Assembly (NCBI GenBank): GCA_964618315.1
Contig: CAZTWQ010000002.1
Coordinates: forward strand, 22,980 to 86,979
DNA: 64,000 bases
Origin: an uncultured Methanosarcinales archaeon
Lineage (GTDB): Archaea > Nanobdellota > Nanobdellia > Woesearchaeales > JACPBV01
Direction: 5' to 3'
Below are positions 12,536 through 63,579 of the stretch, one piece after another. Both the position numbers and the translations under genes were made by a program. Below the pieces are notes generated by a model. It was not told the DNA's origin. It did no database searches and was given only the letters and a program-made list of their open reading frames with translations. Numbering within the stretch: the stretch's first letter is position 1; the number at the start of each line of letters is the position of its first letter.

Positions 12536-13018
12536 TTAGGCTAAATTCCTAATTTTCTTATAACTTAGTTTTGCAACAACTGCCCATAATATATTGCTAA
12601 ATAACAAAGCGATTATAACTCCTTGAACAACCTTTACTGGCATATGCACTAAGTAAACATCTGTAAGGTATAGCCAGGGTAATTGAATCAGGTAAGATGT
12701 TAAGACAGCTAGAATAATATTCCACTTTAATCTTATCAGCACCCCAAACACAGTCCCTAAGATGATATTTCCTATCATGATATAAGGATTGTTTAATGCA
12801 AATGAGGTGTATATCGAACCCACAGCCCCAGATATAAAACCTCCTGCAGGACCATATATGATTGCCGCCAGGAATATTAAGTATTGGAAGAAATGAACCC
12901 TAACTCCAAATATATTCACATGAAATAATCCTAAGATATTAGGGAATACTGCTAAGAAAGCAAGTAATGTGATGTTTTTCAATGTTAATTGAAAGTTGAA
13001 AATATTTTTGTATTGCAT
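12536..13018 (-). CDS. small polytopic membrane protein (ECF S-component-like)
   Basis: 160 aa, about 5 TM helices, GPAGGFISGAVGS motif. Confidence 0.4.
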   Translation of the reverse strand: MQYKNIFNFQLTLKNITLLAFLAVFPNILGLFHVNIFGVRVHFFQYLIFLAAIIYGPAGGFISGAVGSIYTSFALNNPYIMIGNIILGTVFGVLIRLKWNIILAVLTSYLIQLPWLYLTDVYLVHMPVKVVQGVIIALLFSNILWAVVAKLSYKKIRNLA

Positions 13019-13064
13019 TATAAAAAAGTTGATTAAACTAGTATAAATAGTTTGGGTTTAATAT

Positions 13065-13227
13065 GGTTTAGTAGAAAATATCGGTTGCCATCAATTTATG
13101 AGCTTCTTAAATAGATACATCTAACTGACAAGGGGGAAGTCCCTTACGGGGAATGTCAGTTATCTATGCCAACATCAAGAAGCGAATCCGATGGCAACCC
13201 GACCAACGGGAGATTTTCTACTAAGCC
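13065..13227. repeat. ~163-nt rod-like palindromic element, copy 1
   Basis: Nested complementary arms: GGTTTAGTAGAAAAT/ATTTTCTACTAAGCC, TTGCCATC/GATGGCAA, ATAGATA/TATCTAT, CTGACA/TGTCAG. The core is about 85% identical to 63252-63415. Flanks are GTTTAATAT and GTTTAATTT. Confidence 0.7.
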
Positions 13228-13273
13228 GTTTAATTTTTTATTTAATACTTTTAATGACTATTAGAAAACTAAA

Positions 13274-14545
13274 TCACTCCATGGTTTCTATTCTGATAAC
13301 TACTGTCTTTTCTTTCGTAACTTCTAAAGCATTTATCTCTTTTACTGCCTTTACTAAGTTTTCTTCAACTGATTCATGGGTCGTGACTATAACAGGCACT
13401 ATATTCTGATTGATCTCTTTTTGTTCTACAGCTGCGATGCTAATCTTGTTGTCACCTAAGATTTTTGATATCTTAGCAAGTACACCTGCTTTATCCTCAA
13501 CAGTATACCTAAGATAGTATCTTGACTTAATCTTGTTCTTGTCCTTTACTTTTACATCTTCAAAATAGGACACGTCTTGTTTTCCTTTTGCTATATCTAT
13601 CACATCGCCTAGAACTACTGTTGCTGTCGGCAGCTGACCAGCTCCTTTTCCATATAGCATTGATTTTGTAGTGTTCTCAGCTACAAGATAGATAGCATTA
13701 AGCTCATCTTTAACAGAAGCCAGTTCATGATTTATAGGTATCATCGTTGGATGGACTCGTAATTCAATCTCATCATCTGTTTTTTTGGCTATTGCCAGAA
13801 GTTTTATCTTATAACCTATATCTTTTGCATATTTTAGATCGTTTTTGTTTATCTTTGTGATGCCATTTGTAAATATATCATCTTCTATCTCTGCATTAAA
13901 TGCTAATCTTGATAGTATCACTAGTTTTTGTGCAGCATCCTTCCCTTCAACATCAAATGCAGGGTCTGCTTCTGCAAAGCCAAGATCTTGTGCTGTCTTT
14001 AATGCATCTTTGTATTCCTGACCTTCTTCCATCTTTGTCAATATGAAATTAGTCGTTCCATTCAGTATACCATATATCTCTTTTATATTGTCTGCTGCAT
14101 AACTTTCTTTTATAGTCTTTATTATAGGTATACATCCGCCGACTGCAGCTTCAAATGCAATGTTTACATCATTGTTTTTTGCAGCTTCAAATATCTCTTT
14201 GCCATGTTTTGCAATAACTGCTTTGTTTGCAGTAACAACATGTTTTTTGTTCTTTAAAGCACTTAGAATTATATCTTTTGCAGGAGTATAACCCCCTATA
14301 AGCTCTATTATCAAGTTGATGTCTGGGTCGTTGATCAATTCGTTGTAATCTTTTGTCAATTGATCGTCTTTTAATCCAAGATCTTTCGCATTACCTAGAT
14401 TACAATCACAGACCTTTTTTAAGTTAATCTTAATACCTGTTCTTTTCTCTATAGTATCCTTGTTATTATTTAGTATCTTAACTACTCCACCGCCTATTGT
14501 TCCGATTCCCACTAATCCAATATTTATTTCTGGCATCTTAATCAT
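13274..14545 (-). CDS. hom: homoserine dehydrogenase with C-terminal ACT domain
   Basis: 423 aa with GLVGIGTIGGGV Rossmann loop and LNGTTNFILT motif. Confidence 0.9.
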   Translation of the reverse strand: MIKMPEINIGLVGIGTIGGGVVKILNNNKDTIEKRTGIKINLKKVCDCNLGNAKDLGLKDDQLTKDYNELINDPDINLIIELIGGYTPAKDIILSALKNKKHVVTANKAVIAKHGKEIFEAAKNNDVNIAFEAAVGGCIPIIKTIKESYAADNIKEIYGILNGTTNFILTKMEEGQEYKDALKTAQDLGFAEADPAFDVEGKDAAQKLVILSRLAFNAEIEDDIFTNGITKINKNDLKYAKDIGYKIKLLAIAKKTDDEIELRVHPTMIPINHELASVKDELNAIYLVAENTTKSMLYGKGAGQLPTATVVLGDVIDIAKGKQDVSYFEDVKVKDKNKIKSRYYLRYTVEDKAGVLAKISKILGDNKISIAAVEQKEINQNIVPVIVTTHESVEENLVKAVKEINALEVTKEKTVVIRIETME

Positions 14546-61594: not shown

Positions 61595-61683
61595 GGGCCT
61601 ATAGCATAGCCTGGATAGTGCAATTGGCTTCGGATAGAAATAGAAGCTACCAGTTGACCGGGGTTCGAATCCTCGTAGGCCCA
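61595..61683 (+). tRNA. tRNA-Arg (anticodon UCG) with 15-nt intron after position 37
   Basis: Hand-folded cloverleaf. Acceptor GGGCCTA/TAGGCCC; D arm GCAT..GTGC; anticodon stem ATTGG/CCAGT with loop CT-TCG-G. Intron at 61634-61648; T arm CGGGG-TTCGAAT-CCTCG. A TATA-like GTTTTATATAG lies about 28 nt upstream. Confidence 0.8.
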
Positions 61684-62535: not shown

Positions 62536-63192
62536 TCATTTCTTCTTATCTTTTTTTACTGGTTTTACTTCTTCTGTTTCTTCAACTGATTCTTTTTTTG
62601 TTCTAAATGGTATTGTCAATACATGAAGTATCCTTAGAACAAACTCAAGTAATATTATGAATCCTAAGTAATAAATCATGGTCTTCCACATTGCTGGAAA
62701 TCCTTTTATCGTTGCTATTGATGCTTCTAATGAAAAATATCCTATATCCAGCAAGAATACACCTAATAATGCAAATGGCAGCATCTTAGCCAGATCTTTT
62801 GATAAATCTTCATTATAATATGCAGTTATCCTGATCGATGAAACTAATGCTATCGCTATAAGCAAAAGAGAACTTACATCTGATTTTGAGAGTGTTGATA
62901 ATACTAATGTGAGTATCAAAAACCAAAAAAACGTGAATAATGGAAATACTAACAGATATTCTACCATATAAAATATTACATCGACAATATTCTTGATAGT
63001 TCCCAGCAATGACTGGCTGTATTTTTGTAGGTTTAAACTAAAGATATCTCTTTTAGCTATAAATCTGTAGAACTTAAATATGAATATTGAGTATATGACA
63101 ATTCCTGCTATGAACAATATCAAAGGCTTTACTGCAGTCTGAGCTTCTGCTAATGATAGATCAAGAAAAGTTATACCACTGGCATTTATCAA
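62536..63192 (-). CDS. polytopic membrane protein with Lys/Glu-rich tail
   Basis: 218 aa, about 6 TM helices. The TTG start lies 5 nt after a strong GAGGTGAT Shine-Dalgarno site. Confidence 0.5.
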   Translation of the reverse strand: MINASGITFLDLSLAEAQTAVKPLILFIAGIVIYSIFIFKFYRFIAKRDIFSLNLQKYSQSLLGTIKNIVDVIFYMVEYLLVFPLFTFFWFLILTLVLSTLSKSDVSSLLLIAIALVSSIRITAYYNEDLSKDLAKMLPFALLGVFLLDIGYFSLEASIATIKGFPAMWKTMIYYLGFIILLEFVLRILHVLTIPFRTKKESVEETEEVKPVKKDKKK

Positions 63193-63251
63193 TCAAATCA
63201 CCTCTTTTATCTATTTATTAAGATTATAGTATAAAAAGTTTACTGATGATT

Positions 63252-63415
63252 GGGCTGCGTTGAAAATATGAATTGCCATCAATTCGTGGGCTTGATAGAT
63301 AATCACTTCAAACTGACAAGGGGGATGCCTCTTACGGGGAACGTCAGTTATCTATACTAACTTCAAGAAGCGAACCCGATGGCAACCCGAACGTAGTGAG
63401 ATTTTCAACGCAGCC
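63252..63415. repeat. ~164-nt rod-like palindromic element, copy 2
   Basis: The outer stem GGCTGCGTTGAAAAT/ATTTTCAACGCAGCC differs from copy 1 but is still complementary. The inner TTGCCATC/GATGGCAA, TATCTAT and CTGACA/TGTCAG arms are conserved. It is flanked by a CTGATGATT direct repeat. Confidence 0.7.
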
Positions 63416-63579
63416 TGATGATTAGTTTATAATACTCGTTTGTTAGAATAATAACATTAAATTAATATAATAACATTGCGTTATATAGTATATGGAATCA
63501 GACTTAGAGGATATTGCTAAATTCTTAGGTGTGATGGAAGAAATAGTAGATAAAAATATGGAGTTATGTGATAAGTAAA

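Follow-up and report, generated by a model that had tools for sequence, protein, structure and literature searches.

A non-autonomous transposable element with covarying hairpin arms, inserted at promoter edges in DPANN archaea

Introduction

Between the genes of an uncultured archaeon (assembly GCA_964618315.1, labelled Methanosarcinales and placed among the Woesearchaeales in GTDB), two copies of a 163-bp palindrome fold into long rods. Both lie on the 64,000-nucleotide stretch analysed here (contig CAZTWQ010000002.1, positions 22,980 to 86,979; hereafter the window). Copy A (13065-13227, plus strand) separates a gene for a 160-aa membrane protein (12536-13018), which has a weak match below the Pfam thresholds to the S component of energy-coupling factor (ECF) transporters, from a homoserine dehydrogenase gene (13274-14545). 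Copy B (63253-63415, also plus strand) lies ahead of the gene at 62536-63192. The window is archaeal in character, with 34% G+C and promoters of the type that combines a transcription factor B recognition element (BRE) with a TATA box, and contigs of the same population encode Alba. An earlier reading of the bare sequence, here called the original prediction, had noticed that the stems of the two palindromes change in compensatory fashion, took this as a sign of selection on structure, and named a plain transposable element of the miniature inverted-repeat type (MITE) as the outcome that would speak against it. We find that both palindromes are copies of a non-autonomous MITE, a mobile element rather than a stand-alone RNA gene, bounded by terminal inverted repeats (TIRs) and an exact 9-bp target-site duplication and dispersed over many unrelated sites, and yet that the covariation is real in all of its helices.

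Results

Two diverged copies of one rod

The two copies are 80.4% identical overall (5' arm 75.8%, tip 87%, 3' arm 82.4%). Scanning the window with nhmmer and with sequence patterns revealed no third copy, and the pattern scans gave 0 chance matches. All of the helices that had been listed at the outset are present: an outer 15-bp stem (P1), the helix GGTTGCCATC/GATGGCAACC (P2), two middle helices (GCTTCTT/AAGAAGC and ATAGATA/TATCTAT), an apical helix CTGACA/TGTCAG (P5) and a G-rich tip. The limits given earlier for copy A hold, whereas copy B begins at 63253 and not at 63252, and the similarity of the 3' halves, estimated at about 85%, is high but measures 82.4% over the 3' arm. Folded as RNA, the plus strand of copy A reaches -61.7 kcal/mol (z-score -6.1, against -6.7 for the minus strand) and copy B a z-score of -4.9; folded as DNA, the rod has a z-score of -6.3, and no shuffled sequence matched the stability of the window copies with either RNA or DNA folding. 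The outer stems of A and B differ at 5 of 15 positions, and each change is mirrored on the opposite arm, so that the stems have diverged with their pairing kept, just as had been described. An additional C>T in the 5' outer arm of copy A (GGT instead of GGC) gives a G-T pair; copy B has its GCTTCTT helix in a shifted register and an A-C mismatch as the last pair of the CTGACA helix. The element has 43-46% G+C in a 34% G+C genome, and the window copies contain only chance open reading frames (ORFs) of 31-36 aa, none of them common to both.

A mobile element with a 9-bp target-site duplication

The outermost coordinates in the original prediction, 13056 and 13236, coincide exactly with the outer borders of a 9-bp direct repeat around copy A that had been overlooked. 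The same repeat length emerges from the family as a whole: when repeat lengths of 5-13 bp were tried, the identity between upstream and downstream flanks was 0.70 at 9 bp and 0.28-0.43 at all other lengths. The 9-bp duplication is perfect in 12 of 36 copies and matches at 8/9 in 6 more, where unrelated flank pairs average 2.6/9, and 54 unique sites have one that matches at 8/9 or better once the boundaries may shift by as much as 2 bases. Sequence conservation ends exactly at the ends of the TIRs, that is, at the base of the stem. The 15-bp TIR has the consensus GGCTnnGTnGAAAAT, with GGCTTTGTTGAAAAT in some copies; across 111 distinct copies these termini are 94% paired (14/15 in copy A, 15/15 in copy B), although TIR positions 4-10 vary widely between subfamilies.

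A palindrome with these properties might instead be a single-stranded DNA hairpin site of another mobile system, either an integron attC site or an element of the repetitive extragenic palindromic (REP) or IS200-IS605 type moved by a Y1 transposase. Imperfect palindromes with covarying arms and extrahelical bases are typical of attC, and hairpins are the substrates of Y1 transposases. However, a target duplication, here exactly 9 bp long, is made neither by attC nor by IS200/IS605; the ends read GGC...GCC and lack RYYYAAC/GTTRRRY core sites; the copies are isolated, outside any cassette array and without an integrase or TnpA/RAYT gene beside them; and the centre of the element is its most conserved part, the opposite of attC. 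We therefore consider an attC-like or Y1-mobilised origin very improbable.

The insertions also leave a mark on assemblies. Among contigs carrying the homoserine dehydrogenase gene next to copy A (L140-L146), six independent assemblies stop 76-101 nt past the gene, inside the element, and the population contigs with the flanking genes all contain the element or break within it. The element thus breaks metagenome assemblies of its host genomes.

A family widespread in DPANN-type archaea

Relatives occur well beyond the window. A scan of a genome collection with a 3'-arm pattern returned 18 chance matches and two true full-length relatives, one in a Candidatus Woesearchaeota metagenome-assembled genome (MAG; L012) and one in a MAG labelled Methanosarcinales (L003). 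Metagenomes scanned with the tip pattern of copy A yielded at least 116 loci, mostly from groundwater and sediment, and a covariance model built from 33 full-length copies matched 113 times in 100 sources, frequently at least twice per contig among the recovered loci; searches for the tip family in viral contigs, phage records and plasmid records found no match. Most copies are 157-168 bp long. Gene neighbourhoods are unrelated between loci, with no conserved neighbouring gene, and both window subtypes have close-to-identical relatives elsewhere (L113, L056, L084, L118). Taken together, the TIRs, the fixed 9-bp duplication, the lack of coding capacity and the many dispersed copies identify the element as a MITE, and its family is widespread in DPANN-type archaea (Woesearchaeota and relatives).

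Several copies depart from the common form. Two that are near-identical to copies A and B (L084:525-720 and L118:11399-11600) are longer by ~50 bp, inserted in the 5' arm after the outer stem and before P2, the former within a perfect target duplication, AGTTAGACC. A set of GC-rich relatives (L050:7252-7383, L045:1280-1385, L023:1526-1643, L107:12218-12297) keeps the tip and inner helices and has no recognisable outer stem or duplication; among such relatives lacking P1, L023:847-1006 and L055 have a different TIR type with a 9-bp duplication, and the others have no clear ends. Abutting or nested pairs of elements (L035:555-940, L082:1166-1494, L079:6540-6900) indicate that the family also inserts beside or into its own copies.

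Insertion at the upstream edge of promoters

Where does the element land? The distance from its end to the ATG of the nearest outward-pointing ORF has a sharp mode at 45 nt: 19 flanks lie at exactly this distance and 38 of 168 at 42-49 nt, left and right sides equally, and about 40% of copies lie roughly 45 nt upstream of a start codon, adjoining a BRE/TATA. In 18 flanks, compared with 4 of 178 control windows further out, a perfect TTTAWAWA starts at 15 nt from the end of the element and 6 nt past the duplicated 9-mer; the empty sites, when reconstructed, have the form ...TTTATAAAnnTTT-nn-[9 bp]-n-AAAnnTTTATAAA... The window copies follow the same rule, with the end of copy A 46 nt from the start of the ECF-S-like gene and the same BRE/TATA arrangement between copy B and the gene ahead of which it lies (63192-63252 region). 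Insertion occurs directly upstream of the BRE in promoters of leaderless genes, and the promoters are left intact. The original prediction had placed each copy upstream of the TATA box of a small membrane-protein gene; a box does stand beside each, but outside the element, and it does so because the element inserts directly upstream of BRE/TATA.

This geometry bears on the idea that the rods are stand-alone small RNA genes, non-mobile paralogues that each have a promoter of their own. Their fold is strong, both window copies have a TATA-like box 14-22 nt upstream, and copy A is followed by a T-run. The boxes, however, serve the divergent neighbours, at a canonical distance from their start codons, and are too near the base of the stem to initiate there; moreover, the flanks are target-site duplications, synteny is absent and Rfam gives no match. 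We give almost no weight to such genes, and return to the MITE and the enzyme that may move it.

The likely source of the transposase

The termini resemble the inverted repeat of IS903, GGCTTTGTTGAATAAATC, a sequence confirmed on plasmid records annotated IS903B (IS5 family), and the element has the traits of the IS903 group within that family: a GGC start, an inverted repeat of ~18 bp similar to that of IS903, and a 9-bp duplication. IS903 itself makes 9-bp duplications at a target motif WTTYA-N9-TRAAW (PMC2577343). Around the insertion sites of the element, T is enriched at -4/-3 and A at +2 to +4. From its termini and duplication length, then, the element appears to be an IS5/IS903-type MITE. 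Insertion sequences (ISs) of the IS6 family, whose termini are similar (IS26-like GGCACTGTTGCAAA), were considered as a source and rejected, as they make 8-bp duplications and the peak here is at 9 bp.

Candidate enzymes co-occur with the family. The IS903B transposase, used as a tblastn query, had a single relative, encoded on a MITE-bearing contig (L040:9697-10286); the protein family of this relative (556 members, ~311 aa, PF13737 and PF01609) is very abundant in the same metagenomes. The archaeal-type IS903-group ISs that encode it (L147-L153, e.g. L148:~410-1620) carry a divergent 51-aa DUF2080 ORF, the TIR TGCTGTGTTGCATAATTC and a 9-bp duplication, which in L148 is ATTATTTTT. Other small elements (L075, L077, L117) combine the same TIR type and 9-bp duplication with unrelated interiors, as would fit a shared transposase family. 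At the right end of IS903B (L137:~2310-2335), a subterminal CCCGCTACGGGGGAGACTTACCC has a loose likeness, perhaps by chance, to the reverse complement of the MITE tip (CCCCGTAAGGGACTTCCCCC).

Covariation in all helices and conserved asymmetric parts

The covariation test took in the 111 distinct copies and 36 base pairs, with shuffled and slid-partner sequences as controls. Paired cells amount to 92.9%, compared with 64.2% in shuffled alignments and 28-44% with slid partners, and double changes occur in all 36 pairs (984 double-changed cells, 242 expected). The compensatory change first seen between two copies is therefore real and general. It is, at the same time, something that a transposon's inverted repeats would be expected to display as well. 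P1, P2 and P5 each occur as 17-20 distinct perfectly complementary variants: P2 is 96% paired in the family, with 19 of them, and P5 97%, with 20 (e.g. CCGACA/TGTCGG and GCTGG/CCAGC), while the middle helices, in a region that aligns poorly across the family, are 75% paired. The best conserved parts are those that break the symmetry. One is the 23-nt tip, with the consensus AGGGGGnnGnCnCTTACGGGGAA among metagenome copies that were themselves selected by the tip pattern; the two genome relatives, found with a different pattern, differ at 3-4 positions. The other is a 13-nt insert confined to the 3' arm, with the consensus CGAGCnnnGCGAG, whose 2 pairs covary (CC/GG, AC/GT, GC/GC) and are 91% paired. 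To the eye this insert, GA...GAG around a covarying 2-bp hairpin, is like the K-turn or K-loop RNA motif that forms the L7Ae site, but its geometry is unlike that of a simple K-turn.

Is the rod an RNA? Rfam returned nothing for the whole window at the gathering threshold except one tRNA, and nothing relevant for 12990-13290 at E-values up to 10, in agreement with the earlier failure to place the sequence in any known non-coding RNA family. The tRNA gene (61595-61683) has an 18-nt insertion in its anticodon loop, an archaeal-type intron. As specific candidates, signal recognition particle RNA, RNase P RNA, H/ACA and C/D RNAs and known ribozymes were set aside, their motifs misfitting by eye and Rfam remaining silent. 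The MITE could nevertheless carry a functional structured RNA, with a plus-strand transcript that, for example, acts on neighbouring transcripts or uses the tip and the GA-flanked mini-hairpin to bind a protein. Strong covariation in all helices, the conservation of unpaired asymmetric motifs and a G+C content above that of the genome would fit, as would an excess of G-U over A-C cells on the plus strand (78 vs 46, ~1.7-fold), and a bacterial precedent exists in bcr1, a mobile repeat of ~155 bp in the Bacillus cereus group that is transcribed and has compensatory changes (PMC3184786). Against this, the family copies have no conserved internal promoter, no oligo-T terminator, no orientation bias and no conserved location; most lie upstream of promoters, where no transcription is to be expected, and they occur in either orientation. 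Neither strand folds better overall, the plus strand being the more stable in 42 of 88 copies. About 94% of pairs are Watson-Crick, and G-U makes up only ~2.7% of cells, far below typical RNAs, in an alignment whose covariance model itself favours G-U over A-C. A functional RNA of this kind is, in our judgement, unlikely; the almost purely Watson-Crick pairing and the weak strand bias point to a constraint on the DNA rather than on an RNA. Of the two forms of structure selection that had been proposed, RNA or a DNA cruciform or hairpin, the maintained complementarity bears out the general claim, while rare non-Watson-Crick pairs and strands of equal stability lend the RNA form little support.

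Complementary arms could also arise with no selection on structure. Template switching is an established process at bacterial quasi-palindromes. If it acted within the element, as quasi-palindrome correction or arm-to-arm conversion, it would mimic compensatory evolution, and pairing that is nearly strand-symmetric and almost all Watson-Crick, with many distinct perfect variants per helix, is what it would leave behind. Yet such a process should remove what is asymmetric, the bulges as well as the 13-nt insert and the 23-nt tip, and these are best conserved, so that purely neutral arm-to-arm correction would not be the whole story. The difference between the middle helices, at 75%, and P2 and P5, at 96-97%, likewise suggests position-specific constraint. 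Template switching as the full account of the pairing is thus possible but doubtful, and we favour a MITE whose pairing is kept at the DNA level. The features of both window copies are collected in Table 1.

Table 1. Coordinates of the two element copies, their flanking duplications and the promoter next to copy A (positions in the window)
Feature	Position	Strand	Sequence	Remarks
Copy A, left target-site duplication	13056-13064	.	GTTTAATAT	8/9 match to 13228-13236
Copy A, left TIR (P1 5' strand)	13065-13079	+	GGTTTAGTAGAAAAT	Complementary to 13213-13227 save one G-T
Copy A, P2 5' strand	13083-13092	+	GGTTGCCATC	Pairs with 13190-13199
Copy A, middle helices, 5' strands	13102-13117	+	GCTTCTT (13102-13108), ATAGATA (13111-13117)	Partners 13177-13183 and 13161-13167
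Copy A, apical helix P5, 5' strand	13125-13130	+	CTGACA	Pairs with 13154-13159
Copy A, asymmetric tip	13131-13153	+	AGGGGGAAGTCCCTTACGGGGAA	Conserved tip
Copy A, 3' strands	13154-13199	+		P5 13154-13159; middle helices 13161-13167 and 13177-13183; P2 13190-13199
Copy A, 3'-arm-only insert	13200-13212	+	CGACCAACGGGAG	2-bp mini-hairpin between GA...GAG; no 5'-arm counterpart
Copy A, right TIR	13213-13227	+	ATTTTCTACTAAGCC	From complementarity and boundary comparison
Copy A, right target-site duplication	13228-13236	.	GTTTAATTT	From flank comparison
Promoter of copy A neighbour, outside element	13016-13055	-	TATAAATA (BRE/TATA, 13043-13050)	Start codon 13016-13018; ECF-S-like membrane-protein gene
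Copy B, left target-site duplication	63244-63252	.	TGATGATTG	8/9 match to 63416-63424; 9/9 as CTGATGATT if both boundaries move one base
Copy B, left TIR	63253-63267	+	GGCTGCGTTGAAAAT	Perfect complement of 63401-63415
Copy B, 5' strands	63273-63318	+	P2 TTGCCATC (63273-63280), P5 CTGACA (63313-63318)	Includes middle helices
Copy B, tip	63319-63341	+	AGGGGGATGCCTCTTACGGGGAA	
Copy B, 3' strands and insert	63342-63400	+	P5 CGTCAG, P2 GATGGCAA (from 63378), insert CGAACGTAGTGAG (63388-63400)	Includes middle helices
Copy B, right TIR	63401-63415	+	ATTTTCAACGCAGCC	Perfect complement of left TIR
Copy B, right target-site duplication	63416-63424	.	TGATGATTA	From flank comparison

Discussion

The explanation that best accounts for the locus as a whole, to which we assign a probability of roughly 0.8, is a non-coding MITE of ~163 bp that is moved in trans by an IS5/IS903-type transposase, inserts at the edge of promoters and is kept paired at the level of its DNA. 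In the sequence of events that we envisage, a DDE transposase of the IS903 group within the IS5 family, supplied in trans, would bind the 15-bp TIRs, excise the element and insert it at a 9-bp staggered cut, the repair of which would yield the 9-bp direct repeats. Its favoured target would be A/T-rich and lie immediately upstream of the BRE/TATA of a promoter that faces away from the element, leaving that promoter intact. The rod itself is the extended inverted-repeat architecture of the element.

What keeps the arms complementary? In the outer stem, mirrored changes are expected even if nothing folds, since one transposase has to fit both ends. Such a fit does not readily explain the inner helices. 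We infer, as the most likely reason, that the inner complementarity is actively kept at the DNA level, through a hairpin or cruciform that would join the ends of a very short element, through template switching between its arms, or through both, and that selection on the sequence itself preserves the tip and the 3'-arm insert, most probably as a site where a protein binds.

Several observations weigh against this account. Two TIR variants coexist in one genome, so the need to fit a transposase may not by itself explain the mirrored changes in P1. Contig L126 carries two copies 660 bp apart (56-218 and 880-1044) that are chimeras of two end types and whose left (GGCTCTGTAG...) and right (...GAACGGTGCC) ends do not complement each other; the first of them has an 8/9 duplication despite its mismatched ends. 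We know of no DDE cut-and-paste mechanism that requires inner-helix covariation or a conserved asymmetric tip, and the bias of G-U over A-C leaves some room for a function of the single strand. As for the enzyme, the ISs that co-occur with the family match the MITE at only ~10/18 terminal positions; TIR-pair scans of all loci, tblastn and a protein search found no autonomous IS with exactly matching TIRs; and the 64-kb window contains no transposase gene. The insertion sites score 5.5/10 for the IS903 target motif, compared with 4.2-5.4/10 in shifted registers, and this signal overlaps the BRE. Finally, a search for empty sites through the flanking proteins and through all-against-all BLAST of the loci recovered no empty-site allele.

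The position of the copies relative to promoters could reflect target choice, by sequence or shape or through bound TBP/TFB, or it could reflect survivorship, the genome being compact. The peak is narrow, even at sites such as that of copy B, whose other flank offers over 100 nt of free spacer, and this favours targeting. We speculate, tentatively and with some doubt, that the family targets the upstream promoter edge as a safe haven in compact DPANN genomes, with a hairpin core that the transposase or a host factor recognises as a cruciform or hairpin, or that acts as RNA. Were targeting the cause, the element would provide a natural marker for the promoters of leaderless genes in uncultured archaea.

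The case also carries a more general lesson. Mirrored changes in a palindrome are insufficient grounds for calling a structured RNA, and flanking direct repeats and the context of other copies need to be checked first. The MITE family itself is well defined and widespread in the DPANN archaea, a group whose mobile elements are barely characterised, and its hairpin pairing persists even between highly diverged copies.

Among known systems, IS903 and the MITEs of its group are close to the element. They share with the element the GGC start, a similar inverted repeat (GGCTTTGTTGAAAAT in some copies, beside GGCTTTGTTGAATAAATC in IS903), an exact 9-bp duplication and A/T-rich, roughly palindromic target flanks; by contrast, the element has no transposase gene, resides in archaea and has a conserved hairpin interior unseen in IS903. 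Among bacteria, MITEs that fold into very stable hairpins are common, and one of them, Chunjie, has 9-bp direct repeats (PMC3184786). Like our element, bcr1 is a small interspersed mobile repeat with short flanking direct repeats and a stable predicted fold kept by compensatory changes, but it is bacterial, its direct repeats are 5 bp long and it forms two stem-loops, where the element forms a single rod between 9-bp repeats. Chunjie of Geobacter and Nezha of cyanobacteria are likewise intergenic elements of 130-235 bp with TIRs and very stable hairpins (PMC3184786). They differ in being bacterial, A/T-rich and confined to one lineage each, and neither a deeply conserved loop motif nor promoter-edge targeting has been reported for them.

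In archaea, MITEs are represented by SM1-SM4 of Sulfolobus, and archaeal MITEs have in common with the family described here that they are non-autonomous and possess inverted repeats and target duplications. In a census that leaves families undescribed, one Woesearchaea genome ranks with the most MITE-dense archaea, at 105 MITEs/Mb (PMC11602168). Neither this family nor its conserved core, nor any archaeal IS or MITE inserting at promoter edges, turned up in the searchable literature, an absence that is no proof of novelty. The nearest parallel to its placement comes from yeast, where the retrotransposons Ty3/Ty1 and Tf1 integrate a short, constant distance away from the transcription-initiation machinery and so spare the genes of a compact genome. 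Those are retroelements tethered to eukaryotic factors, whereas this is an archaeal DNA element for which tethering is hypothetical; if its placement is due to targeting and not to survivorship, it would constitute an archaeal counterpart of the promoter-tethered integration seen in eukaryotes.

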